DNA from: Candidatus Nomurabacteria bacterium
Lineage (GTDB): Bacteria > Patescibacteriota > Minisyncoccia > Phycocordibacterales > UBA9973
DNA length: 64,000 bases
NCBI GenBank assembly: GCA_943359485.1
Contig: CALRHR010000001.1
Coordinates: forward strand, 51,141-115,140
Direction: 5' to 3'
The notes below the pieces were generated by a model, which searched no databases, had not been told where the DNA came from, and saw only the letters and a list, made by a program, of their open reading frames with translations. Each line of letters opens with the position of its first letter. Positions within the stretch are counted from its first letter, which is position 1. This document shows, piece after piece, positions 1 to 59,895 of this stretch. Position numbers and translations under genes: made by a program.

Positions 1-1276
1 TATCAATAACAAAAGCACTGTGCACAAAGTCCCCGAGGGGAAATCTTACGGACCAGTAGAAGTGAGTTTGAGGAAAAGTAAACTTTTTGTAAACCTGTCG
101 AGTCAGATAAATGCTTGGTCAAGTCATGGAGATTCAGTAAAAAAAGCACCGACTGGTTTCAAAATTATTGCGACTTCTAAGGGTGGCAAAGTAATCGAAG
201 CGATGGAAAATACCAAAGAAAAACTTTACGCGGTGCAGTTCCATCCGGAAGTCGAGCAGACAGAAGATGAAAATATTATTTTAAATAATTTTGTAAAGAA
301 AATTTGCGCTTGTAAACAAGACTATTTTAAAAAAGATGCAATAAAAACCATTTGTAAAGAGATAGGCGAGAATACAAAAAATATTTTAGGTGATAAAGGC
401 GTAGCCATCATAGGAGTTTCCGGTGGAGTGGATTCTACGACACTTGCGGCGATACTGACGCCAGTACTAGGTAAACAATTGAAGGCATTCTTGGTAGACA
501 CTGGTGGAATGCGGAAGGGTGAAATAGAAAAAGTTAAAAGTATTGCAAAGAAAGCAAAAATAAATCTGGAAGTGATAAGTAAATACAAAAACAAATTTAT
601 CGAAAATGTGGGAAAAAGCATAAATGCGGAAGAAAAAAGAAAAAATTTTCGTGAGGTTTATGGGGAAGTTTTTAAAGAAGTGGCAAAATTTTACGGAGCG
701 ACGCACATGATCCAAGGCACTCTTGCCACTGATTTGATAGAGTCAGGATCTACGGGAAAATCTGCATTGATCAAAACTCATCACAATGTGGATTTGAAAT
801 TGGGACTCAAAGAAATAATGCCGTTCGCTGACTTTTTTAAATTTGAAGTGCGTGATATAGCGCGGTCATTTGGTTTAGGAGAATTAGTTTCAGGGCGTCA
901 GCCATTTCCTGGACCAGGATTGTATTTACGGGTAGTGGGGGTACCGGTAACCACAGAATTACTGGAGATTGTGCGTGAAGCCGATGACGAAGTAAGAAAA
1001 ATTTTAGAAAAACATAATTTATATAATAAAATTTCACAAACGATAGTAGCTCTTCTCGGCACGAAGACTGTTGGTGTTAAAGGCGACGGGCGAGTTTACG
1101 GATATTCTTTGGTGGTTCGCACAGTAGAGACGGCAGATTTTATGACAGTTAAAGGTTTTTATTTGCCACCTATTGTCTGCGAGGAAATCACCAATACTTT
1201 AGTCAAACATCCAAAAATTGTCCGTGTTCTTTACGACTGGACGACCAAACCCCCAGCCACGACAGAATTTGAATAA
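1..1276 (+). CDS. guaA: GMP synthase (glutamine-hydrolysing), 5'-truncated by window edge
   Basis: The frame is open from base 2, so the start lies off-window. The end of the GATase domain (YAVQFHPE) is followed by the ATP-PPase P-loop SGGVDSTT and a conserved C-terminal domain ending TTEFE. Confidence 0.9.
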   Translation, partial: INNKSTVHKVPEGKSYGPVEVSLRKSKLFVNLSSQINAWSSHGDSVKKAPTGFKIIATSKGGKVIEAMENTKEKLYAVQFHPEVEQTEDENIILNNFVKKICACKQDYFKKDAIKTICKEIGENTKNILGDKGVAIIGVSGGVDSTTLAAILTPVLGKQLKAFLVDTGGMRKGEIEKVKSIAKKAKINLEVISKYKNKFIENVGKSINAEEKRKNFREVYGEVFKEVAKFYGATHMIQGTLATDLIESGSTGKSALIKTHHNVDLKLGLKEIMPFADFFKFEVRDIARSFGLGELVSGRQPFPGPGLYLRVVGVPVTTELLEIVREADDEVRKILEKHNLYNKISQTIVALLGTKTVGVKGDGRVYGYSLVVRTVETADFMTVKGFYLPPIVCEEITNTLVKHPKIVRVLYDWTTKPPATTEFE

Positions 1277-22103: not shown

Positions 22104-22267
22104 GTAAAGTATAAATAATTTTTAGAGCAAAGATTGAACTCTAACGAATCCAACAAAAATAATACGAATCGTAACATCCAAGGGTCGACGATGCAAAGCA
22201 TCGGAGATACTGAGGAGCGAAGCGACGAATGTACTGTTTTTTGTTTTGTTTCGTTCTAATTAACTTT

Positions 22268-23910
<1,643 letters not shown>

Positions 23911-24138
23911 TTGAAAACTATCCCGGTCCTCTTCGGAGGGCTGAGTGTCAGACCCGTTCTGACCGGATTTATTGAGTCGGTATTGTGTCGCTCAATTGAC
24001 GACACAATAGTTTTTGCTCAAACTTAAAATGAGCTAGACTATATGGAAAGACATATAAAATAAAAAAGTTTCAGCCTTCGGGCTGATCCGCCTCTGGCGG
24101 AAAAAAGGAACGAAACAAAACAAAGGACAGTAACAAAA

Positions 24139-47013: not shown

Positions 47014-47034
47014 TGTCAAAGGCGGGCTTTGACA
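47014..47034. repeat. REP hairpin TGTCAAAGGCGGGCTTTGACA
   Basis: A perfect palindrome that overlaps both the gyrA stop and the last codons of the RAYT ORF. Confidence 0.8.
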
Positions 47035-47642
47035 TCAAAATTCAGTGTTTGCTCTATAAAGTTTTTAGTGTCTCCAAAAGTTTCCAGTAAGAATTCTTTA
47101 CTAACTATTGGCAAGTTTCGGTCTGATGCATAATCATTATAACTACCCCACTGATATTCTTTTGGATGTTTCACTAATCCATCTTTTACTGGATTCATGT
47201 GAATATAAGATGATGTCCACATCAGCTGAGGATCGCCTTTAATAAGTACTGCCTTAAATTTGTCTTGAAAAACATGCCCAACTTTTTTATATTTTTTATT
47301 AATGTATCTAGAATAACTAGTACAAAGTTTTAACATTAATTTTGAAATTGGCATGTCTACAATTTGTTCAATTAGAAAATGGAAGTGGTTTGGCATCAGA
47401 CAAAAAGCATACAAATTAAAAGCCCCTTTTTCCATTTTAGTTATCCTGATTCTAGAGTAGGGTAGGGCAGTTAATTTTTCTTTGTTTAATTCTTCTTCAG
47501 TAAATCCCAAAGACAGTCCCAGTCTAAAGAGGAAAGCTCTATAATCCTGCTCATCGAAAAATATCTTCTCCTTATTATTGCCACGATTATAGATGTGATA
47601 AATACCACCAGGAGCAAATTCTTTAAAGTCTCTATTATTCAT
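47016..47642 (-). mobile_element. REP-associated tyrosine transposase (RAYT, IS200/Y1 transposase family)
   Basis: IYHIYNRGNNKEKIF...FCLMPNHFHFLIE...YIHMNPVKDGLV matches the HUH plus Tyr pattern. REP hairpins flank it. Confidence 0.8.
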
Positions 47643-49654: not shown

Positions 49655-50050
49655 ATGAAAAATATAAAAAAAATTCTCATAAATATCACGGCATTCCTGA
49701 TTGTATTTATGTTGCTTGTTACACCAGTATTGTCTTTTGCGTATAATATCAGGGATCCGATAGTGCCACCTTGTCCGGCGACTGGGTGTGGGTGGAATGA
49801 ATTTTTAATGCTTATAAACAATGTAATTTATTTTATTCTGTATGGTTTGGCTATGCCTATTGCTGCCATTATGTTTGCGTATGCCGGAGTTCTTCTCGTC
49901 CAAGCGCAAGGTGGGGAAGCCAAAACTAAAGCCAAAGAAATTTTCCTGAACGCTGTGTACGGCCTGGCCATAGCCGCCGCTGCCTGGCTGATAGTCAAAA
50001 CCTTACTCGCTGTGTTGGGTTACAAAGATGCCGCTTGGATTGGATTTTAG
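49655..50050 (+). CDS. T4SS-pilin-like (TrbC/VirB2-like) small membrane protein 1
   Basis: It has a signal peptide plus two TM helices. These flank the loop LLVQAQGGEAKTKAKEIFLNAVYGLAIAAAAW. Confidence 0.6.
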   Translation: MKNIKKILINITAFLIVFMLLVTPVLSFAYNIRDPIVPPCPATGCGWNEFLMLINNVIYFILYGLAMPIAAIMFAYAGVLLVQAQGGEAKTKAKEIFLNAVYGLAIAAAAWLIVKTLLAVLGYKDAAWIGF

Positions 50051-50074
50051 TGTGTGTATGTTATAATAAAAGCA

Positions 50075-50482
50075 ATGAAATTTATTAAGAAAAATTTTTA
50101 TATCATAGTACTGCTGACTTTTTTGGTTGTTATGCCTATCCTTTCTTTTGCGCAAGCTACGCCTGGCGGGAACCCTATAAGTACACCTGGTGGAAATGCC
50201 GGATGTGACCCCTCGAAGAAAATCTGCAATCCGATAAAAACCGACACCTTAAATGGCTTTATCAGGGCTATCCTTGAAGGCGTCTTCAAGATCGGCTTGC
50301 CTATTTTAGCGTTGGCATTTGTTTTTGTTGGTTTTCTGTTTGTGCAGGCCAGGGGTAATTCGGAAGAATTGACCAAGGCCAAAGATGCTCTGTTGTATAC
50401 TTTAATCGGTGCAGCGGTGATCCTCGGGTCGTGGGCTATCGCACAGCTTATCACTGAAACAGTGACCGCATTAAAACCGTAA
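50075..50482 (+). CDS. T4SS-pilin-like small membrane protein 2
   Basis: It has a signal peptide ending SFAQA and the loop FVQARGNSEELTKAKDALLYTLIGAAVILG. TATAAT lies 7 nt before the ATG at 50075. Confidence 0.6.
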   Translation: MKFIKKNFYIIVLLTFLVVMPILSFAQATPGGNPISTPGGNAGCDPSKKICNPIKTDTLNGFIRAILEGVFKIGLPILALAFVFVGFLFVQARGNSEELTKAKDALLYTLIGAAVILGSWAIAQLITETVTALKP

Positions 50483-50517
50483 GGTATGGTTGATTATTAA
50501 TAAAAATAAAAATAAAT

Positions 50518-50820
50518 ATGATGTGTAATCAAGAAGGTTTAATTGAAATGGTGTGTAGGTTGGGTGATCTTTTCAGTATTGTTGTTCCGGTATTAGTGGG
50601 CTTGGGAGTTGTTTACTTTGTCTGGGGTGTCGTTCAATATGTTATTGCTGATGATGTAGAGGCAAAGTCGAAGGGCAAAGACAGGATAATCTTTGGCATT
50701 ATCGGTTTGGCTGTGATTGTTAGTTTGTGGGGGTTAGTGTTCATTCTTACGGATACTTTTTTTGGTGTAGATGCAGGCATGGAAGGTGCCCCTGATTTTC
50801 AAGGTCTACTTCCTGAATAA
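50518..50820 (+). CDS. T4SS-pilin-like paralogue 3 (no obvious signal peptide)
   Basis: YFVWGVVQYVIADDVEAKSKGKDRIIFGIIGLAVIVSLWGLV. Confidence 0.5.
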   Translation: MMCNQEGLIEMVCRLGDLFSIVVPVLVGLGVVYFVWGVVQYVIADDVEAKSKGKDRIIFGIIGLAVIVSLWGLVFILTDTFFGVDAGMEGAPDFQGLLPE

Positions 50821-50825
50821 AAAAT

Positions 50826-51563
50826 ATGAAAAAATACGCACAAAAAATAGTAAAATTTATTCCAATACTTTTTATTTTAACCTTTGTTCCATTTTTAGTT
50901 TTTGCCCAACCCATACCCCCTTCTGCGCCTTCCGGTTTGGCTGCTGTAATAAATAAAATCAGTGCTTTGCTTAGCTCACTTCTCCCCGTACTTATTTCCC
51001 TAGGAGTACTCTATTTTATTTGGGGAGTTATTATTTATTTTATTGCTGACGATGCAGAGGCAAAGTCGAAGGGCAAAGACAGGATAATCTACGGCATTAT
51101 CGGCCTTGCTGTCATTGTCAGTGTTTGGGGACTGGTTGCCATCTTAAATCAAACTCTTGGTTTGAGTGGGAACTCTGGTTTATCTGGCGTGAGTGCTCCT
51201 TCTAGTATTTCAAATTTGGCACCCTCTTCCAATGTATTACCTTCATGTTCATATATGATAAGTAATAAACCAAAGCTGGCGAATTATCTGGAGTACTTTA
51301 CTTGTATAATTGCTCAATCAGTCATCCCACTTATCTTTGCCATAGCTGTCGTGACCTTTATCTGGGGTGCGGTAAAGTTCTTTATCATCAATGCGGAAGA
51401 GGAAGCCAAAAGAGATCAGGGCAAGCAGTTCATGCTCTGGGGTATTATTGCCCTCGCGGTGATGATCAGTGTTTGGGGTTTGGTCAAAATTCTGGGAGAG
51501 ACCGTGAATATAGATACAAACTATCTGCCTTCAGTTCAGCCGTACAGTTCATCCCGGCCGTAG
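50826..51563 (+). CDS. T4SS-pilin-like paralogue 4, tandem double-domain
   Basis: It has a signal peptide and two copies of the two-helix module (…ADDAEAKSKGKDRIIYGIIGLAV… and …NAEEEAKRDQGKQFMLWGIIALAV…). Confidence 0.55.
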   Translation: MKKYAQKIVKFIPILFILTFVPFLVFAQPIPPSAPSGLAAVINKISALLSSLLPVLISLGVLYFIWGVIIYFIADDAEAKSKGKDRIIYGIIGLAVIVSVWGLVAILNQTLGLSGNSGLSGVSAPSSISNLAPSSNVLPSCSYMISNKPKLANYLEYFTCIIAQSVIPLIFAIAVVTFIWGAVKFFIINAEEEAKRDQGKQFMLWGIIALAVMISVWGLVKILGETVNIDTNYLPSVQPYSSSRP

Positions 51564-51628
51564 CCCTTGCTTTTATTATTAGTATGTTTGTGTTAGAATT
51601 AACAGGTCGTTTATTAATTAAGTCAGGT

Positions 51629-51699
51629 ACTAGGTGTTAGGCGCTAGGCATTAGCATAAAATCAAGCTAAAGCTTAAAGTCTAAATTCCTAAAGCCTAA
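51629..51699. repeat. TAGGC-heptad palindromic element
   Basis: ACTAGGTGTTAGGCGCTAGGCATTAGC-ATAAAATCAA-GCTAAAGCTTAAAGTCTAAATTCCTAAAGCCTAA. Confidence 0.55.
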
Positions 51700-51703
51700 A
51701 AAA

Positions 51704-52090
51704 ATGAAAAATAAATTAATGGTTTTGTCGGGTTTTGTTATGGGTTTGGTTCCGGTCGTGGCGTTAGCGCAGAATACTGGTGGTACTCCTACTGTGTGTA
51801 CTGCGGGTCCTGTGACAACCTTTCAGGGTGCCTTGTGTAAAATTGGGGAGATTATGAATGCAATCATTCCGATTTTGATAACACTGGGTGTACTGTACTT
51901 TGTCTGGGGAGTTATTTCGTATGTTATTGCTGATGATGAAGAGGCAAAGTCAAAGGGACGAGACAGGATAATCTACGGTATTATCGGCTTGGCTGTTATC
52001 ATTTCTGTTTGGGGATTGGTGAAGATTTTGTCAAATACTTTTGGGCTTACAAATGTACAGCAAATTACTTTTCCGACTGTTTCTTACTAA
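51704..52090 (+). CDS. T4SS-pilin-like paralogue 5
   Basis: It has a signal peptide ending VALAQN and YFVWGVISYVIADDEEAKSKGRDRIIYGIIGLAVIISVWGLV. Confidence 0.55.
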   Translation: MKNKLMVLSGFVMGLVPVVALAQNTGGTPTVCTAGPVTTFQGALCKIGEIMNAIIPILITLGVLYFVWGVISYVIADDEEAKSKGRDRIIYGIIGLAVIISVWGLVKILSNTFGLTNVQQITFPTVSY

Positions 52091-52140
52091 TCTATAAAGT
52101 GTCGCACCAAGAATCGTGCGACATGATTTCGTAAAATCAC

Positions 52141-52488
52141 ATGAATTTATTTCTCGGTCTTTTCTCTGCCAGGGTGGCTTATGCGAGCGTTGATACCTTT
52201 ATGAATAGCGTAGGCGAGCTTATCATAAATCCGCTCATCAATTTTCTTTTTGCTCTAGCGGTGGTGTATTTTCTGTATGGCGTGTTTGAATTTCTGTCCA
52301 ATCAGGAAAATGAAGACAAGAGAACAGCCGGCAAGAGCCACATGCTTTGGGGAATTGTCGGCATCACCATCATGATGGGTGTGTGGATCATCTTTGGTCT
52401 TATTCTGGACACTTTTAACTTAAGAGGTGACATAGATGTCAGTTCAGGAGGGGTTATAAATGTGAAGTTGCCACCATACAATCCTTAA
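52141..52488 (+). CDS. T4SS-pilin-like paralogue 6 (divergent)
   Basis: VVYFLYGVFEFLSNQENEDKRTAGKSHMLWGIVGITIMMGVW. Confidence 0.5.
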   Translation: MNLFLGLFSARVAYASVDTFMNSVGELIINPLINFLFALAVVYFLYGVFEFLSNQENEDKRTAGKSHMLWGIVGITIMMGVWIIFGLILDTFNLRGDIDVSSGGVINVKLPPYNP

Positions 52489-52624
52489 TAGAGAATTCAT
52501 CTCAAGAGAATAAATTCAAATTAGAGACATAAAAAGGGCGACTTCGCAAAAGCGAAGTCGCCCTTTTAGGTTCTGGAGTCAGTTTACTTTGCACAGCATA
52601 GATCTTTTGTGGTATACTGCAACT

Positions 52625-52855
52625 ATGAAAAATATCATTCAATTTTCAATCGAAAAAGGGCAGGATGGGTATTACATTGCTACAGCAAATGATTTTGCTA
52701 TTATTACCCAAGCGAAAAATTTAGAAGATTTGTTTGTAAATATTAAAGAAGCCACCGAGCTTCACTTTGAAGAAATTTTAGAAGAAGAAACATCTCTGAG
52801 CCGCAATCCTTCAATTTTTATAAACTACGAAATGCCTATCGCGCTCTATGCCTAA
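52625..52855 (+). CDS. hicB: HicB-like antitoxin
   Basis: MKNIIQFSIEKGQDGYYIATANDF...DLFVNIKEATELHFE is UPF0150/HicB-like. TATACT (52613-52618) lies 6 nt before the ATG. Confidence 0.65.
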   Translation: MKNIIQFSIEKGQDGYYIATANDFAIITQAKNLEDLFVNIKEATELHFEEILEEETSLSRNPSIFINYEMPIALYA

Positions 52856-53090
52856 ATTAAAGCGACTTTCTGGCAAAGAAGTCATAACTTTTTGTGAACA
52901 ACACAATTTTAGTATCAGTAGACAGAAAGGAAGCCATATTAATTTGGTACGAATTGTTTCAGAGAAAAAACAAGTGGTGACCGTGCCAAATCATAAAGAA
53001 ATAGACAGAGGAACATTGCATAATATTTTCAAGAAACTGTCTTCATTCATTCCTGAAGAAGATTTAAGAAAATTTTTCTTTACTGACTAG
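52848..53090 (+). CDS. hicA: HicA mRNA-interferase toxin
   Basis: KLKRLSGKEVITFCEQHNFSISRQKGSHINL is the YcfA/HicA signature. It overlaps hicB by 8 nt. Confidence 0.75.
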   Translation: MPKLKRLSGKEVITFCEQHNFSISRQKGSHINLVRIVSEKKQVVTVPNHKEIDRGTLHNIFKKLSSFIPEEDLRKFFFTD

Positions 53091-53098
53091 GTAAAATC

Positions 53099-53140
53099 AA
53101 AAAGGCGGTCGTTCATCGCTGAACGGGTCCGCCTTTTGTT
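53099..53140. terminator. bidirectional terminator at the left edge of the GC-rich island
   Basis: AAAAGGCGG-(CGTTCA-GCGA-TGAACG)-CCGCCTTTT has T-runs on both strands. Confidence 0.65.
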
Positions 53141-53248
53141 TTGCGCGTGGGGCTCGCACGCGCGATGTTTTCATGAGCCCTCCTTTCTCCGAAGTTGATC
53201 TGCTTCGGGCAGAGACCTTCTTTGCGCTGGTCAGGCGCTCCGAGAGAA

Positions 53249-54253
53249 TTACTCCCGGATGTATACACCTGTGGCTGGGGTTGCCCCCTCGCCACAGAAC
53301 TTCCAGATCCCCGCCATCCCGATGGACGGCGGGGGGGTGGTGCCGAAGGTCTCTGTATGAGATCCTCCGTCCGGGTCAAACACCTTCATGGAGCCCCGAT
53401 CGGGACCCCACTGGCTGTTGATCCGTAGGTTCCGTTCGTAACAGCCATCTGTTCCGAACGGGTAGAGGGTGGGTGTCGGCCCTACCTTCGCGGGCGCCGG
53501 GGCTGTCGAGGCCACCGGCGTGGATGTCCGGCTACCTGCCGGTGAGGGGGGTGCGGGAGGTAACAATCCCCCAAAAAATCCACCCACTGTCTCCCGGATC
53601 TCGGTCCCGACCCGTTGGGCTACTTTGTCGCCGACTACAGCCTTTTTTGCTGTGTCGATAGCCACTGGGCCGATGCCGCGCCCCTCGGATGCCGCCTGAT
53701 CTGCTTCCTCCCACTTCGTCGTGGGGGCGGGAATCGCGGGGACCGTCATTGGCGTCGCCGACTTCGGCCGAGCCATCTCGGCCGATCGTGGCATTTCCCT
53801 TGCCACGAAAAGGGAAATCAACACTATTCCGAAGATGGTGAGCGCTGGCTTCACTCGGCCGTGTGCCGTCATTGCGGCGATCACGACCGAACAAAAAAAC
53901 AGCGCTACCCAAATTAAGATATCCGTACTGGCTGTTGGGTATAGCCATGGGCGTGGTCCCGTGGTGAGAAAGTAGCTGAAGGCGAAGTTATTGCTAACTC
54001 CGACAACAGTAGTTCCCACCATCATGACGAATGTAAGCGTAGAGAACCCGACGATGAATTTCTTCATTCCATCGGAAATTCCGCCGCCGTGTGCCGCCGC
54101 GGGTCGCGAGAGGCCGCCCCAGCCTTGGTGCTGGGCCAGCTTGTAAAGGCCGTACAGCACTCCGCCGACGATAGCGACGGTCCAGGGGTTCCAGCCGAAT
54201 GAGCTCGACACCCAATACACTCCCAGGGCCGCGATTGCAAATTTCCAAAACAT
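53249..54253 (-). CDS. GC-rich polytopic membrane protein A1 (unknown function; Pro-rich linker plus small Cys-containing C-terminal domain)
   Basis: A 334-aa ORF with an ATG preceded by AAGGAAG. Third codon positions are G/C-rich. There are about 5 hydrophobic helices, then PAIPAPTT...PPAPPSPAGSRTSTPVASTAPAPAKVGPTP. Confidence 0.65.
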   Translation of the reverse strand: MFWKFAIAALGVYWVSSSFGWNPWTVAIVGGVLYGLYKLAQHQGWGGLSRPAAAHGGGISDGMKKFIVGFSTLTFVMMVGTTVVGVSNNFAFSYFLTTGPRPWLYPTASTDILIWVALFFCSVVIAAMTAHGRVKPALTIFGIVLISLFVAREMPRSAEMARPKSATPMTVPAIPAPTTKWEEADQAASEGRGIGPVAIDTAKKAVVGDKVAQRVGTEIRETVGGFFGGLLPPAPPSPAGSRTSTPVASTAPAPAKVGPTPTLYPFGTDGCYERNLRINSQWGPDRGSMKVFDPDGGSHTETFGTTPPPSIGMAGIWKFCGEGATPATGVYIRE

Positions 54254-54545
54254 TTCATTTCTTCCTTAACTCCGTCCCCTTGACTGGGCAACATGGAGTT
54301 GGAGCAGACTGATCAGAGTACTACAACCGCTTGCGCGTTTGTCTTACTTTGAATAGTCTGCCCGCTAGGAAGCCGGATTTTTTCTCTCCTCTCCTTACCC
54401 CCTCCGCTTTCAGCACCTCCCCCTAAATAGGGGGAGGCCGGGTAGGGGTACAAAGGGGTGAGGGTTCAGCTACATGGCGGGCAAACCATTCATTTTGCTC
54501 GAAATTCTACTTACTTCTTATTTAATTTTCGAAGGTCAGCTTTAC
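54254..54545 (-). promoter_or_regulatory. ~290-nt structured 5' leader of cassette 1
   Basis: A 13-bp long-range stem (54351-54363 with 54479-54491) encloses a GC-rich variable domain. A GCAA-tetraloop hairpin lies at 54328-54337. Confidence 0.55.
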
Positions 54546-54551
54546 CTATGT

Positions 54552-54580
54552 ATTGTATCACACTTATGACAAAAAGTCAA
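54552..54580 (-). promoter_or_regulatory. promoter of cassette 1 (TTGACT-N17-TACAAT on minus strand)
   Basis: The -35 lies at 54575-54580 and the -10 at 54552-54557. The sequence is identical to cassette 2. Confidence 0.7.
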
Positions 54581-54626
54581 GCCCTTTGGGCTGAATTTGT
54601 CCTTATTTTGTAAGGTTAAAATGATA

Positions 54627-54658
54627 AAAGGGCCGCCTCAGTGAAGAGACAGCCCTTT
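54627..54658 (-). terminator. terminator of cassette 2
   Basis: On the minus strand, AAAGGGCTG...CGGCCCTTT is followed by TATCATTTT. Confidence 0.55.
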
Positions 54659-54783
54659 GTTTTGCGCTGGGCCTGTGCGCGATTTGGGCCCTGGGTTGAC
54701 GAGTCCCCGTTGCGTCACTCTGGTTTGTTCCCTCCAGACGGGAGACCTCTATTTTGTAAGCGCTGGTCAGGTGCTTTGTCTTT

Positions 54784-55281
54784 TTAGGGGCAGTACCGGC
54801 TTGCCCCCTCTTCGAGGGGGTTGAACGGCCGTTTCTTCCCGTCCTCCCCGACGATCTCGTCGGGGCAGCCGAATTTCTTGTGTTTGGGGGTCCCTACCCC
54901 CAGAATTTTGTCGACGGCCTGGTCGAGCGCTTGCCCGACAGAGACCGCCGACTTGCCGTCGCCGAGTCCAAGACTCCCGAGGACCTTGTTGATCCCCTCG
55001 AGGGCCGCGTTCCCGGCGGTCTTTCCGATCTCAAGCGCGCGCCGATTGCGCAGCGCGCGGGCCTTGGCTAGAATCGTCGGAGTGCTGTCCTCCGGATGCG
55101 CCTCGAGCCAGGCCAGCGTCTTGCTGGCCCCGTCATAGAGCGCCTTCGCTCCCTCGATTGTTGTAGCGGCTGGAGCCTTCTCCAGAGCCGCCACTTTCTG
55201 CGCCATTTTTTCTTGTCGGCTGGCGCCACAACCGACCGCCGTGAGTGCCACGGCGAGCACGAACGTCAAGAGGAAATTCAT
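54784..55281 (-). CDS. GC-rich putative lipoprotein B2 (helical, unknown function)
   Basis: The signal peptide MNFLLTFVLAVALTAVGC is lipobox-like. GGAGGGGGAGGGAAGAA lies immediately upstream. The start overlaps the upstream stop as ATGA. Confidence 0.65.
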   Translation of the reverse strand: MNFLLTFVLAVALTAVGCGASRQEKMAQKVAALEKAPAATTIEGAKALYDGASKTLAWLEAHPEDSTPTILAKARALRNRRALEIGKTAGNAALEGINKVLGSLGLGDGKSAVSVGQALDQAVDKILGVGTPKHKKFGCPDEIVGEDGKKRPFNPLEEGASRYCP

Positions 55282-56153
55282 TTCTTCCCTCCCCCTCCAA
55301 ACATTCCCTTGACTATCCACTCCAGGGGCTGGGTGACTACCTCACCCAGGGAGTGTTTGGCGGCCAACTCCCCAATGCCGCCAATCTTCCATTTCCTAAT
55401 ACCCCCGAGGACCTCGTCCCAACGGGAGCAGACGATGGCTCCGACGAGCGCTATCATCTGCCACCCGAGAACTCCCCACCCCATAGCCTTCTCCCCGAAG
55501 AGAAACGAGTTAATGGTTGCCCAAAAACCGAATTCCCCCAGGGGATCCTCGAGCGGAGTCGTTGCCACAGCCCAGAACTGGGCTTTGGCGATTTCGATGG
55601 GGTTTAGGGTTGCTGGCGCCGCGGTAGGGTCCACCCACCACAAAAACACCACCCCTAACACCATCCACACCGTCGTGCGAAGTACCCAGTTGTTGTCGCC
55701 GAGCCGGATCAGGACACTCCGCCCGATCTCCGCAGCCCCACGGCCGTGAGTCTCGATTCCCGCGAAGATGGCGAAGACCGCGAGCGTGGTCACGAGGGCA
55801 ACTAGCGTAAAGGCTGGGTAGCCGAACCAAAAACCGAAGACGATCCAGTAGAGTACTATGAACAGCGCCCCCCAGAATCCCACGGTCTTCGGCTTGATCA
55901 CTACCTCGCCTTCGTCGCAAGCGCCATCGCCTACGACTTCGGCCCTAATGATGTGTCGTCCCGGTTTGAGGTCTTTGAGCTCGAAGCTCGCGACCCCGCC
56001 TTCCGTCTTTACGGCGCGCTTGCGCTTGCCGTCGACCGAGAAACGAACCTGGACTTCTTTCTCGCCACCTTTTTTCCCGGCGGTGGCCGGCCGGTCTGAC
56101 ACGACGGCTTCCGCCACCGTGTCTTTCTCTACTAAACTCAAAGTCAAAATCAT
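55278..56153 (-). CDS. GC-rich membrane protein A2 (N-terminal beta-rich soluble domain plus multiple TM helices)
   Basis: The start is chosen at MILTLS, with TAGGAG 7 nt upstream. The hydrophobic core is FWGALFIVLYWIVFGFWFGYPAFTLVALVTTLAVFAIFAGI. Confidence 0.6.
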   Translation of the reverse strand: MILTLSLVEKDTVAEAVVSDRPATAGKKGGEKEVQVRFSVDGKRKRAVKTEGGVASFELKDLKPGRHIIRAEVVGDGACDEGEVVIKPKTVGFWGALFIVLYWIVFGFWFGYPAFTLVALVTTLAVFAIFAGIETHGRGAAEIGRSVLIRLGDNNWVLRTTVWMVLGVVFLWWVDPTAAPATLNPIEIAKAQFWAVATTPLEDPLGEFGFWATINSFLFGEKAMGWGVLGWQMIALVGAIVCSRWDEVLGGIRKWKIGGIGELAAKHSLGEVVTQPLEWIVKGMFGGGGKK

Positions 56154-56462
56154 TATCTTTCTCCTAATCAAATTTTTTCTCGAGCACACGATTCAGAATA
56201 CTACAACCACTTGCGTGTTTGTCGTTTCCTGAATAGTCTGCCCATCAATGAGCCGATGCATTTCCTCTCCCTGCGAAGGGGGAGATTTGAGAGGGGGTCT
56301 CAAGAATTACCACCCCTAGCCCCTCCTTAATCAAGGAGGGGAGGAAACATAAAATACTCAGCTTCTTAACGGGCAAACCATTCATTTCCCCGCCAGTCTG
56401 GCCGGGGTAAATTGCTCGAAATTCTACTTACTTCTTATTTAATTTTCGAGTAACAGCTTTAC
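56154..56462 (-). promoter_or_regulatory. ~310-nt structured 5' leader of cassette 2
   Basis: It has the same architecture as 54254-54545. The stem joins 56231-56243 with 56371-56383, and the GCAA hairpin lies at 56208-56217. There is an extra 24-nt hairpin insert. Confidence 0.55.
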
Positions 56463-56468
56463 CTATGT

Positions 56469-56497
56469 ATTGTATCACACTTATGACAAAAAGTCAA
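56469..56497 (-). promoter_or_regulatory. promoter of cassette 2 (TTGACT-N17-TACAAT on minus strand)
   Basis: The -35 lies at 56492-56497 and the -10 at 56469-56474. Confidence 0.7.
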
Positions 56498-56626
56498 GCC
56501 TAAATGCTCCAAAACAGCCTTATTTTACAGGCTATTTTGGGGCATTATTGACATTAGTCTTGTATTGTGTTTTTAAAAAAGTCTATAGTTCTTGTCTTAA
56601 TCTAATTCAAATGATATTATATAAAT

Positions 56627-56857
56627 ATGAACACCGTAACCTTACCCAAAAATCAATACATGCAAATTTTAAGCACTCAAGACAAATTTCAAGTGGATTT
56701 GTCTCGCTTGGAGAGAATGGTTTCTTATATGGTTCAAGATGAAGTTAGTCCGGTGTATATGACCAGACTTTCTAAGATAGAGAAAGGTCTTTCCGCTGGC
56801 AAAGGTGTTAAGTTTAAAAATAAAAGTGAACTCAAAAAATTCTTTCGTTCTTTATAG
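56627..56857 (+). CDS. putative antitoxin (partner of the RelE/ParE-like toxin)
   Basis: A 76-aa ORF lying 2 nt upstream of the toxin gene. TATTAT (56615-56620) lies 6 nt before the ATG. Confidence 0.5.
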   Translation: MNTVTLPKNQYMQILSTQDKFQVDLSRLERMVSYMVQDEVSPVYMTRLSKIEKGLSAGKGVKFKNKSELKKFFRSL

Positions 56858-56859
56858 TT

Positions 56860-57144
56860 ATGAATAATTTAGAGAAGATGAATTTTATTTTTTCTCTGGA
56901 ATTTAAAAAAATTCTAGAGAAAATGGCAAAGAAAGATAAATTAGGATTAAAAAAAATAGAAGACCAAGTATATAAAATAATCTCTAATCCACTCATAGGT
57001 AAACCTCTTCGTAATGTTATGAAAAGTTATCGACGAGTTCATATAGGGCATTTTGTTTTGATTTATAAAATAGAGAACGGAGAGATAACATTTGCAGATT
57101 ATGACCATCATGATCGCATTTATAAAAAATATTCTCTAACCTAA
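56860..57144 (+). CDS. RelE/ParE-family toxin
   Basis: YRRVHIGHFVLIYKIENGEITFADYDHHDRIY. Confidence 0.65.
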   Translation: MNNLEKMNFIFSLEFKKILEKMAKKDKLGLKKIEDQVYKIISNPLIGKPLRNVMKSYRRVHIGHFVLIYKIENGEITFADYDHHDRIYKKYSLT

Positions 57145-57145
57145 T

Positions 57146-58057
57146 ATGCTACTTTCTGCCATCATCACAATAATCGGCCTCTCGCTCTTTGAAGCAGTTT
57201 CTTCGGTTGACAATGCCATCATCAATGCGGAAGTTCTCTCGACCATGGGGGCCAAGGCACGGCGCTGGTTTTTGACTTGGGGGATGTTCATTGCGGTCTT
57301 TCTAGTTCGCGGGCTTTTACCTTTTGCAATAATCTGGGCTTTTAATACATCTCTCTCACCACTCCAAGTTTTATCTGCGGCCTGGTCTTCAGATCCGCTC
57401 GTTTTGGCGTCCATAGAAAAGTCCGCGCCGATACTCCTCGTCGCCGGGGGAGTTTTCTTGTTATTTTTATTTTTGCATTGGCTTTTCTTGGAAGAAAAAC
57501 ATTTGGGTTTGCCTATGGCAGAGAAATTCTTTATGAAGAATGGGGTTTGGTTTTATGCCACTGTATCAGTCCTTCTTTCAATTATCGCTTGGTTTGCATT
57601 AAAGGAGAGCAACCTGATGGGCTTTGGTGCTGTTGTTGGTTCCAGTTTATTTTTTATTACGCATGGTTTCAAGCAAAATGCCGAGGAGCAAGAAAAAAAA
57701 CTGCTCGGGTCGGCACACTCTGATCTCTCCAAGCTTTTTTTCTTGGAAATAATTGATACTACATTTTCTATCGATGGTGTGCTCGGCGCTTTTGCTTTTA
57801 CTCTTTCGGTGCCACTCATTCTGCTTGGCAATGGTTTCGGAGCGCTCTTGGTGCGGGAGCTGACGATTCGCAATATCGAACGAATAAAAAAATATGTTTA
57901 TTTAAAAAATGGGGCGATGTATTCCATTCTGGTTTTGGGGATGATTATGATACTGCACAGCTTTGGGTTTCACATACCGGAATACGCTTCGCCACTTTCT
58001 ACTTTTATCATTATTGGATTCTTTTTTTGGAAGTCGCGAAAATCGTTGCAGGTGTAG
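57146..58057 (+). CDS. DUF475 / TerC-like integral membrane protein
   Basis: LFEAVSSVDNAIINAEVL is followed by multiple TM helices. Confidence 0.6.
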   Translation: MLLSAIITIIGLSLFEAVSSVDNAIINAEVLSTMGAKARRWFLTWGMFIAVFLVRGLLPFAIIWAFNTSLSPLQVLSAAWSSDPLVLASIEKSAPILLVAGGVFLLFLFLHWLFLEEKHLGLPMAEKFFMKNGVWFYATVSVLLSIIAWFALKESNLMGFGAVVGSSLFFITHGFKQNAEEQEKKLLGSAHSDLSKLFFLEIIDTTFSIDGVLGAFAFTLSVPLILLGNGFGALLVRELTIRNIERIKKYVYLKNGAMYSILVLGMIMILHSFGFHIPEYASPLSTFIIIGFFFWKSRKSLQV

Positions 58058-59810: not shown

Positions 59811-59895
59811 TGGTGCTGGAGGGGGGACTCGAACCCCCAAGCCTTGCGGCACTAGTTCCTAAGACTAGCGCGTATACCAATTCCGCCACTCCAGC
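59811..59895 (-). tRNA. tRNA-Leu (anticodon UAG), CCA encoded
   Basis: The reverse complement reads GCTGGAGTGGCGGAATTGGTA...CTAGT-CTTAGGA-ACTAG, then a long variable arm, GGGGGTTCGAGTCCCCC and CTCCAGCACCA. Confidence 0.9.

Follow-up and report, generated by a model that had tools for sequence, protein, structure and literature searches.

Two toxin-antitoxin cassettes, probably acquired separately, border the variable cargo of a slot between pilin genes and DUF475 in a Candidatus Nomurabacteria chromosome

Toxin-antitoxin (TA) modules of the HicAB and RelE types are abundant in Patescibacteria. In superintegrons and in integrative and conjugative elements (ICEs), the stabilization of variable DNA by TA cassettes embedded within it is established. 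Published work on HicA identifies the histidine of its G-S-H motif as catalytic, and a C-terminal DNA-binding domain is common in the HicB family but not universal. Here we consider two such modules, a hicB-hicA pair and a pair with a RelE-type toxin, which stand on either side of a GC-rich gene island in a 64-kb stretch of low-GC chromosome (the window; 39% GC). The organism is most likely a member of Candidatus Nomurabacteria (Parcubacteria/Paceibacterota), judging by its closest relatives. An earlier note on this DNA had taken the two pairs and the island, 52.6-57.1 kb, for one accessory unit stabilized by the TA genes at its ends.

Comparison with relatives leads to a different view. It is probable that the two pairs are independently acquired, compact type II TA cassettes at the permissive junctions of a variable cargo slot, and not parts of one unit with the island. 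The case is carried by the identities of the genes, the limits of the cassettes, their independent distribution among relatives and the difference in base composition. The real limits of the variable region are 52489-57145, between the stop codon of the last gene of an array encoding type IV secretion system (T4SS)-type pilins (52488) and the start of a gene for a DUF475 membrane protein (57146). Each cassette would run from its own -10 box to the toxin stop codon, about 0.5 kb, and the two would have been acquired separately, one per junction. The hicBA cassette would have entered between the last pilin gene and an old shared terminator, and the RelE-type cassette would have entered the gap that separates the slot's divergent promoter from the start of DUF475. 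The island would then be the slot's resident cargo operon (conserved promoter, structured leader, genes A and C-B), with a history of its own and no TA partner.

The loci and contigs compared with the window, which come from relatives or from assemblies of the same strain, are numbered L001-L122. When species-representative genomes were scanned for the DUF475 protein, 80 loci were recovered, mostly labelled Nomurabacteria or Paceibacterota, and look-ups with homologues of open reading frame (ORF) A, of the right-hand antitoxin and of HicA supplied further loci for comparison; slot states were read by tblastn, ORF listing and Pfam scans. Most of the 80 loci have truB-like or cupin genes upstream of DUF475 instead of a pilin array and are therefore uninformative on the slot. 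Exact-protein look-ups with DUF475, HicA and the RelE-type toxin found the same strain in three assemblies only, which confirmed the junction and added no comparison. What can be said of the slot thus concerns a subgroup of the recovered relatives, most of them labelled Candidatus Nomurabacteria or Paceibacterota. Its two anchors are well conserved: orthologues of the last pilin (52-67% at the amino acid level) close the array in L009, L012, L018, L037, L038, L094 and L110, and the DUF475 protein is 74-92% identical in nearly all of the 80 species genomes, with two at 68%.

Between these anchors the content varies widely. The slot is empty in L009 and L018, where DUF475 follows the last pilin gene after 75 nt in the former and about 3 nt in the latter. 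In L088 genes C, B and A form one operon whose promoter lies about 30 nt from DUF475, and L038 holds A/B/C at 29-36% amino acid identity and 60-67% GC; neither has a TA gene on either side. A/B/C are also present in L012, which has no TA gene next to the pilins and a DUF6922 ORF next to DUF475, and in L086, which has an unclassified 98-aa ORF on the pilin side, an rve transposase gene between A and B, and a different UPF0150-HicA pair on the DUF475 side. In L087 and L110 gene A abuts the pilins with no hicBA, and the contigs end before the DUF475 side is reached; in L107, whose contig ends at A with the pilin side outside it, a Fic gene stands between A and DUF475. Other cargo is found in L037, where an SPFH-like gene and a 146-aa gene of normal GC have no TA gene at either side, and in L016, where SPFH-type cargo is accompanied by a hicBA pair (42-45% identical to that of the window) between the slot promoter and DUF475, the pilin side being outside the contig. 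Finally, L094-L099 have an SPFH-like gene with a 183-aa gene, no hicBA, no A/B/C and no DUF475, and carry the window's right-hand pair (antitoxin 68%, toxin 85% amino acid identity).

At least seven other genomes or contigs have homologous GC-rich genes in the space bounded by the pilin genes and DUF475, and none of the relatives that have them carries either of the window's two TA pairs. Across the relatives, hicBA, the A/B/C cargo and the RelE-type pair vary independently. The earlier note had asked whether the segment is present or absent as a block in related genomes, and across L009, L012, L016, L018, L037, L038, L086-L088, L094-L099, L107 and L110 it is not. It had also named, as what would speak against a single unit, TA genes kept in synteny in relatives that lack the island; L094-L099, without A/B/C, have the right-hand pair in just this state.

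Each cassette is also found by itself. Close copies of hicBA (HicA 80-85%, HicB 76-82% amino acid identity) lie in three unrelated chromosomal neighbourhoods, beside an FtsK gene and the gene of a giant PG_binding_1-domain protein, beside peptidase M29 and ribosomal S30AE genes, and beside LeuRS and TsaD genes. The RelE-type pair occurs next to panD, followed by a second RelB-YafQ pair, and in the syntenic slot with SPFH-type cargo (L094-L099); in L091-L093, between an ABC transporter gene and a cold-shock gene, the antitoxin is orphaned and only a remnant of the toxin is left. Nucleotide similarity to the copies elsewhere (76-81%) is confined to 52598/52624-53089 on the left and to 56609-57144 on the right. 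Composition separates the parts as well: the TA genes have a GC fraction of 0.26-0.35, the island genes 0.58-0.63 and the flanking genes 0.41-0.44, and the island (53.1-56.4 kb), at 55-65% GC, stands well above the 39% of the window.

These observations make it very improbable that a single horizontally acquired element spans 52.6-57.1 kb, with addiction modules at its ends that arrived with it and retain it. Such an element would account for the absence of the whole interval from L009 and L018, and for the fact that the sole TA pairs of the window closely bracket the island. However, every one of its components is found without the others in relatives, each cassette recurs alone in unrelated contexts with similarity that stops at the cassette edges, and TA genes of 26-35% GC beside cargo genes of 58-63% do not show the uniform foreign composition of one block. 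The ORFs of 52.5-57.2 kb include no recombinase, integrase or transposase (an IS200-like gene at 47016-47642 lies closest), no att-like direct repeats bridging the interval ends were found, and no tRNA gene that could serve as target adjoins the interval, the nearest lying at 59811, 2.7 kb away. No relatives were found in IMG/VR viral contigs scanned with the A family, C and the toxin, so that a phage origin is without support. Flanking TA pairs would, moreover, outlast a deletion of the island alone.

The descriptive part of the earlier note fares well. The hicB/hicA ORFs at 52625-53090 do end at a bidirectional terminator at the left island edge, the hairpin there folding on both strands; the island between the pairs is indeed GC-rich; and the small antitoxin gene with its toxin gene (56627-57144), said to start about 130 bp past the right boundary, begins at an ATG that is 130 bp from the -35 hexamer (56497) of the island's right-hand promoter. 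Their symmetric placement did not survive inspection, because both pairs are on the plus strand, so that the left one is convergent with the island and the right one divergent from it. Of the proposed accessory unit, the accessory slot stands, being empty in L009 and L018 and having TA-type genes recurrently at its junctions, and the single unit falls, since the parts vary independently.

The suggestion that the pairs stabilize the island sits badly with their position, as a deletion of 53.1-56.5 kb leaves both intact: because they flank the island and survive its loss, they cannot penalize it. A broader form of protection can be envisaged, in which the cassettes were acquired independently and have been kept since a large deletion of the slot, to the state of L009 and L018, would take a TA pair with it and so be lethal. 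Empty slots do exist, so whole-slot loss or gain occurs, and the stabilizing cassettes of superintegrons and ICEs offer a precedent. We nevertheless regard this explanation as unlikely: no cargo-bearing relative has both of the window's pairs, L088, L038 and L037 have no TA gene at either junction, deletions internal to the slot carry no penalty, and the empty state of L009 and L018 could be a loss or ancestral.

Another explanation overlaps with independent acquisition at permissive junctions and differs from it in the selective reason only. The junctions may form a small hotspot for defence or selfish genes, where insertions between terminator and promoter are tolerated and some are kept for phage defence of the abortive-infection type and not for island stability. 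The DUF475 side does hold genes of addiction or defence type that differ by species, namely the RelE-type pair (window, L094), two different HicBA pairs (L016, L086), a Fic gene (L107) and a DUF6922 gene (L012), and an insertion sequence (IS) element lies within the slot of L086. Against this, decayed toxin copies (L091-L093; L100-L102, L104) suggest weak selection in some lineages, and several relatives have empty junctions. Selection for defence is thus conceivable, though we hold it to be doubtful. Independent acquisition, for whatever benefit, is the reading followed below, and the features of the locus are collected in Table 1.

Table 1. Features of the pilin-DUF475 slot and its two anchors, in window coordinates.
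Feature	Position	Strand	Details
Last gene of six-gene T4SS-type pilin array	52141-52488	+	PF18895 T4SS_pilin, E 1.2e-7; conserved left anchor
Perfect 16-bp hairpin terminator	52532-52567	.	After pilin array, upstream of hicBA; inverted repeat I5, 100% complementary
Promoter-like site of hicBA	52590-52618	+	TGCACA-17-TATACT with TG
hicB-like antitoxin gene	52625-52855	+	76 aa, UPF0150-type, no C-terminal DNA-binding domain
hicA toxin gene	52848-53090	+	80 aa, intact G-S-H motif (KGSHINL)
Bidirectional terminator	53100-53137	.	Common to hicA (+) and ORF A (-)
ORF A (cargo unit 1)	53249-54253	-	334 aa, GC 0.60, GC at third codon positions (GC3) 0.67
Promoter and ~300-nt structured leader, unit 1	54254-54583	-	TTGACT-17-TACAAT at 54580-54552
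Terminator of cargo unit 2	54627-54658	-	Fold -22.7 kcal/mol, z -5.6
ORF B, predicted lipoprotein	54784-55281	-	165 aa from ATG 55281; GC 0.63
ORF C	55278-56153	-	291 aa from ATG 56153; GC 0.58
Promoter (56497-56469) and structured leader, unit 2	56154-56497	-	
Promoter-like site of right TA cassette	56592-56620	+	TTGTCT-17-TATTAT with TG
Putative antitoxin gene	56627-56857	+	76 aa, all-helical, unclassified, weakly DUF2683-like
RelE/StbE-YafQ-like toxin gene	56860-57144	+	94 aa; PF05016, TIGR02385
DUF475/TerC-family membrane protein gene	57146-58057	+	PF04332, E 1.3e-46; conserved right anchor

Both TA pairs are ordinary members of known families, with one antitoxin partner that is uncharacterised. 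The HicA of the left cassette matches Pfam PF07927 at 52.3 bits (cut-off 27; E 6.2e-14), its G-S-H motif stands in the context ...RQKGSHINLV..., and many of its 326 homologues are 76-85% identical and come from Parcubacteria/Minisyncoccia. It would act as a small ribosome-independent mRNA interferase, neutralized by a short UPF0150-type HicB that has no DNA-binding domain. A search of structures with the single HicB sequence gave a marginal match to 2yzt (E 0.004); a profile built from HicB and its homologues did better, reaching two UPF0150/HicB-like structures, TTHA0281 (E 1.6e-6) and TTHA1756 (E 9.4e-6), so that the protein appears to carry the HicB/UPF0150 N-terminal fold. No ribbon-helix-helix (RHH) or helix-turn-helix (HTH) domain was found at its C-terminus: the protein ends at 76 aa with nothing following the N-terminal domain, and its close homologues all have this length too. 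A length of 76 aa fits a start at ATG 52625 and not at TTG 52589. The two genes overlap by 8 nt, and in L111-L122 hicB always lies directly upstream of hicA with the same overlap, as a pair of 76 aa and 80-81 aa.

The signals around hicBA are compact. Its ATG is 6 nt past the -10 hexamer and no Shine-Dalgarno sequence precedes it, so the mRNA is probably leaderless. The hairpin between the pilin array and hicBA folds at -29.9 kcal/mol (z -8.4), and the one after hicA folds on both strands with z-scores of -4.25 and -4.32. The latter resembles the terminator behind the last pilin gene of L009, and hicBA was therefore probably inserted in front of a terminator that the pilin array had shared.

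The toxin of the right cassette exceeds the cut-offs of PF05016 (39.2 bits, threshold 23) and of TIGR02385, the RelE/StbE model of NCBIfam (33 bits, threshold 27.9), but not that of the YafQ model TIGR00053, with which it scores 54 bits against 87.25. Single-sequence searches of the PDB were marginal and a family profile improved them slightly, its best matches being mostly YafQ, RelE, Rv2866 and YoeB, again at a marginal E of 0.008-0.09. The RelE/ParE-like label of the earlier note holds at the level of the superfamily; within it the 94-aa protein seems closest to the RelE/YafQ/YoeB branch of mRNA interferases and is better named after that branch than after the gyrase-poisoning ParE. It would be a ribosome-dependent mRNA endonuclease of the RelE/YafQ type, preceded by a helical 76-aa antitoxin that falls in no recognized antitoxin family. 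The toxin gene begins 2 nt past the end of the antitoxin ORF, and here too the first ATG of the cassette is 6 nt past a -10 hexamer with no Shine-Dalgarno sequence, which suggests a leaderless mRNA.

The homologues of the 76-aa protein form 38 clusters at 63-80% identity, nearly all of them 76 aa long, and in L094-L105 (L094-L099 and L100-L105) such a gene is followed by a RelE/ParE (ParE_toxin-family) toxin gene. It is because of this conserved pairing that the protein is labelled an antitoxin. Its AlphaFold2 model has three helices (predicted local distance difference test score, pLDDT, 83). DUF2683 is matched by 9 of 18 family members, with a best E of 7e-5, and a match to DUF5646 is single and weak; the literature found to mention DUF2683 assigns that domain no function. 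The family (about 38 clusters at 63-80% identity) is likely to represent a new antitoxin partner of RelE/YafQ-type toxins. Decayed toxins are seen in some lineages, as a 44-aa remnant in L091-L093 (L091 8234-8365) and as 71-75 aa in L100-L102 and L104, and the 76-aa partner is intact in all of them.

At its far end the right cassette is joined closely to the conserved anchor. The DUF475 gene starts 1 nt after the toxin stop codon (TAA-T-ATG, 57144-57146), and its nucleotide similarity to relatives begins at 57142-57146, that is, at the start codon. Taken together, these facts imply that the RelE-type cassette replaced the native upstream region of DUF475. The gene is then probably co-transcribed with the cassette, or has its transcription supplied by it, and DUF475 in this genome seems now to rely on a TA cassette for its transcription.

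Several points weigh against the interpretation that we prefer. Searched alone, HicB scores 18.3 bits with PF15919, under the cut-off of 27. For the right-hand antitoxin, neither Pfam nor NCBIfam offers an antitoxin family that fits (RelB/DinJ, ParD, Phd/YefM, HigA), and the PDB has no significant match by sequence profile or by fold (AlphaFold2 model with Foldseek). For both pairs we infer toxin activity from family membership and conserved pairing, and the order of the insertions, like the choice between gain and loss of cassettes, is a direction deduced from the comparison. Four of the informative relatives, L087, L107, L110 and L016, are short contigs that reach one junction. Lastly, a Pfam search of the small ORFs of the whole window recognized two TA toxins, HicA and the RelE/YafQ-like toxin, and these sit exactly at the slot borders; such placement is unlikely to be pure chance, so that there is some link to the slot, by insertion preference or by selection.

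The island between the cassettes is organized as two transcription units in tandem, both on the minus strand and each with a promoter, a leader, one or more GC-rich ORFs and a hairpin terminator. Both promoters read TTGACT-17-TACAAT with an extended -10, and in unit 2 the start of ORF B overlaps the stop of ORF C by 4 nt. The genes are real, because A has 12 clusters of homologues (46-65% identity) and C about 25 full-length-like clusters of relatives, the Ig-like repeats of C also recurring in giant proteins; homologues of B are found in L012, L038, L086, L088, L108 and L109. ORF A has a conserved N-terminal multi-pass membrane domain of about 200 aa and no Pfam match, and ORF C an N-terminal Ig-like (Big) domain followed by a multi-pass membrane domain. 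A metagenome scan with the A family returned five short loci only. The C-terminal 100 aa or so of ORF A are hypervariable and contain Cys residues (alignment A3), and a similar C-terminal domain is found on the short 146- and 183-aa proteins of L037 and L094. It looks as if a surface-exposed module is diversifying beside the pilin array.

Protein comparison shows no homology between A and C, which rules out the two units as gene duplicates, and the 3' trailers of the units align only over the short motif GCxCCTGACCAGCGC. A duplication specific to the window was considered for the internal leader between B and A and dropped, since L012, L038 and L109 also have a low-GC B-A spacer, of 330-440 nt; in L012 and L109 this spacer holds short leader-like matches. 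A single tight C-B-A operon is found in L088 only.

A contrast in GC of this size might also be thought to reflect an assembly artefact, a foreign GC-rich fragment joined to a low-GC Nomurabacteria contig at repeats, and public assemblies do break at the palindrome 52532-52567 and in an 89-nt repeat shared by the two leaders: L001 begins near 52555, and the leader repeat is where L004 ends and L002 begins. Yet the junction from hicA through the terminator to ORF A is identical in three assemblies (including a second NCBI assembly and a Logan assembly), homologous GC-rich genes occupy the same locus in at least seven other genomes or contigs, and the leader and promoter are low in GC and conserved across species. 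An artefact is extremely improbable.

The GC-richness of the cargo is lasting. GC3 of A/B/C is 0.58-0.83 in at least six genomes of 37-44% GC, with proteins 30-65% identical across species; the genes concerned lie at 53249-56153 in the window, 6596-9297 in L012, 6869-9517 in L038, 858-4360 in L086, 529-1602 in L087 and 1013-3455 in L088. A simple recent transfer followed by amelioration does not account for this. Repeated replacement from a GC-rich pool, GC-biased conversion and selection are all possible causes.

In front of the cargo stands what appears to be a conserved RNA element. The leaders of units 1 and 2, each about 300 nt, have the 89-nt block in common at 96% identity and a further 62-nt block at 81%. 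They form a long-range stem of about 28 bp, with arms UGAAUGGUUUGCCC... and ...GGGCAGACUAUUCA, around a variable apical insert of 30-418 nt; in the window the stem lies at 54254-54545 and 56154-56462 (both minus strand), and it was also located in L016, L038, L086, L087, L088 and L094. Folding of the two leaders against shuffles gives z-scores of -5.4 and -7.6. Of the cells scored over seven leaders, 88.8% pair, a share that drops to 29-47% once the partner is slid, and six pairs are changed on both sides in compensatory fashion, with many G.U pairs that are valid on the transcribed strand only. Rfam, searched at the gathering threshold and at E<=1, has no family that the leaders match. The stem resembles a processing stem of the RNase III type. 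Promoter and leader are kept in front of different cargo, twice in the window and in L016, L038, L087, L088 and L094-L099; in L086 the arms lie behind a more diverged promoter-like site, and in the truncated contig L034 the promoter alone is visible.

Two further observations concern the leaders. In L088 a low-GC ORF of 107 aa (545-868, plus strand), predicted as a coiled coil and without significant match in Pfam, lies within the apical insert upstream of C-B-A. The unit 2 leader of the window contains a GC-rich hairpin element, CCCCTCCTTGATTAAGGAGGGGCTAGGGGTGGT (33 nt, 56309-56341, minus strand), which occurs once in the window and recurs at about 81-93% identity in intergenic DNA of L018 (10933-10974), L031 (4370-4411), L006 (2836-2877), L007 and L014. 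It may be an element of the repetitive extragenic palindrome (REP) or miniature inverted-repeat transposable element (MITE) kind.

A strong promoter of identical type, a hairpin leader of about 28 bp with a variable apical insert and a short 3' trailer motif are thus conserved across species, and the cargo behind them is not: it differs between species and consists of interchangeable, fast-evolving genes for membrane or surface proteins, whose GC3 is 58-83% against a genomic GC of about 40%. The pilin-DUF475 interval could for this reason be a dedicated cargo-expression slot of this Nomurabacteria lineage, whose conserved ends are the homology arms through which a GC-rich gene pool replaces the cargo time and again, or which is subject to strongly GC-biased conversion, the TA pairs marking a new exchange hotspot. 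We put this forward as a speculation more likely wrong than right. Were it true, the same recombination-prone junctions would attract TA, Fic and IS insertions, and TA pairs would be markers of a hotspot at the pilus locus of Candidate Phyla Radiation (CPR) bacteria and not its stabilizers. In any case the comparison removes the tempting but wrong inference that flanking TA pairs delimit a mobile island. We prefer to see the pairs themselves, which behave as typical selfish cassettes, as mattering little; the slot operon is the less ordinary feature, and attention shifts to why its cargo stays GC-rich and how it is exchanged.

The wider setting is that of a core chromosome. To the left of the slot lie gyrA, a methyltransferase gene, a solute-binding-protein gene and the pilins, and to the right DUF475, tRNA genes and rbfA, with infB past the window end in the longer contig L001; L094 shows the same setting. 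The pilin array comprises six tandem T4SS-type (PF18895) paralogues at 49655-52488 on the plus strand, downstream of the solute-binding-protein gene, and is conserved in L009, L012, L018, L037, L038 and L094. No VirB4- or VirD4-type genes were found among the large ORFs scanned over 36.5-49.6 kb, the 13 kb before the array. The IS200-like gene mentioned above encodes a Y1 transposase (PF01797), is on the minus strand between gyrA and the methyltransferase gene, and has its equivalent position in L094 occupied by a DUF559 gene. The window also holds a 16S rRNA gene, which matches at 22266-23911 (plus strand) over 1646 nt against a model of 1533 positions and so implies an insertion of about 110 nt. 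Insertions in 16S rRNA genes are common in CPR bacteria.

Set beside the described systems, the left cassette is closest to HicAB as known from E. coli K-12 (hicAB), Burkholderia pseudomallei and Yersinia pestis (HicA3B3), with which it shares a HicA domain (here well above the Pfam cut-off), the G-S-H motif, the overlapping two-gene operon and a promoter of its own; with HicAB and the short UPF0150/HicB-like proteins TTHA0281 and TTHA1756 it shares the HicB/UPF0150 N-terminal signature. It differs in that its HicB, at 76 aa, lacks an RHH or HTH domain, which makes the classical autorepression by HicB doubtful, and in its probably leaderless transcript. The gene order of E. coli hicAB is the reverse of the antitoxin-first order found here. 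The right cassette resembles RelBE, DinJ-YafQ and YefM-YoeB in having a toxin of some 90 aa that is recognized by PF05016 and TIGR02385 and a small partner gene 2 nt upstream, and His and Tyr residues of the toxin align with the 'RDAHVE' and 'GTHAALF' segments of YafQ. Its matches in the PDB are, however, marginal (E about 0.01), and the partner, with three predicted helices and no RHH or other recognized DNA-binding motif, is not RelB, DinJ, ParD or Phd/YefM. In their genomic position the two cassettes recall the relBE, parDE and higBA cassettes of Vibrio superintegrons and mosAT of the SXT ICE, as self-contained TA modules at or in a hypervariable chromosomal segment where different TA families take equivalent positions in related genomes. 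Unlike those systems, the slot has no integron integrase, attC sites or ICE machinery, and its TA pairs flank the cargo instead of lying inside it; where a superintegron is an array of cassettes, the slot offers one fixed promoter and leader.

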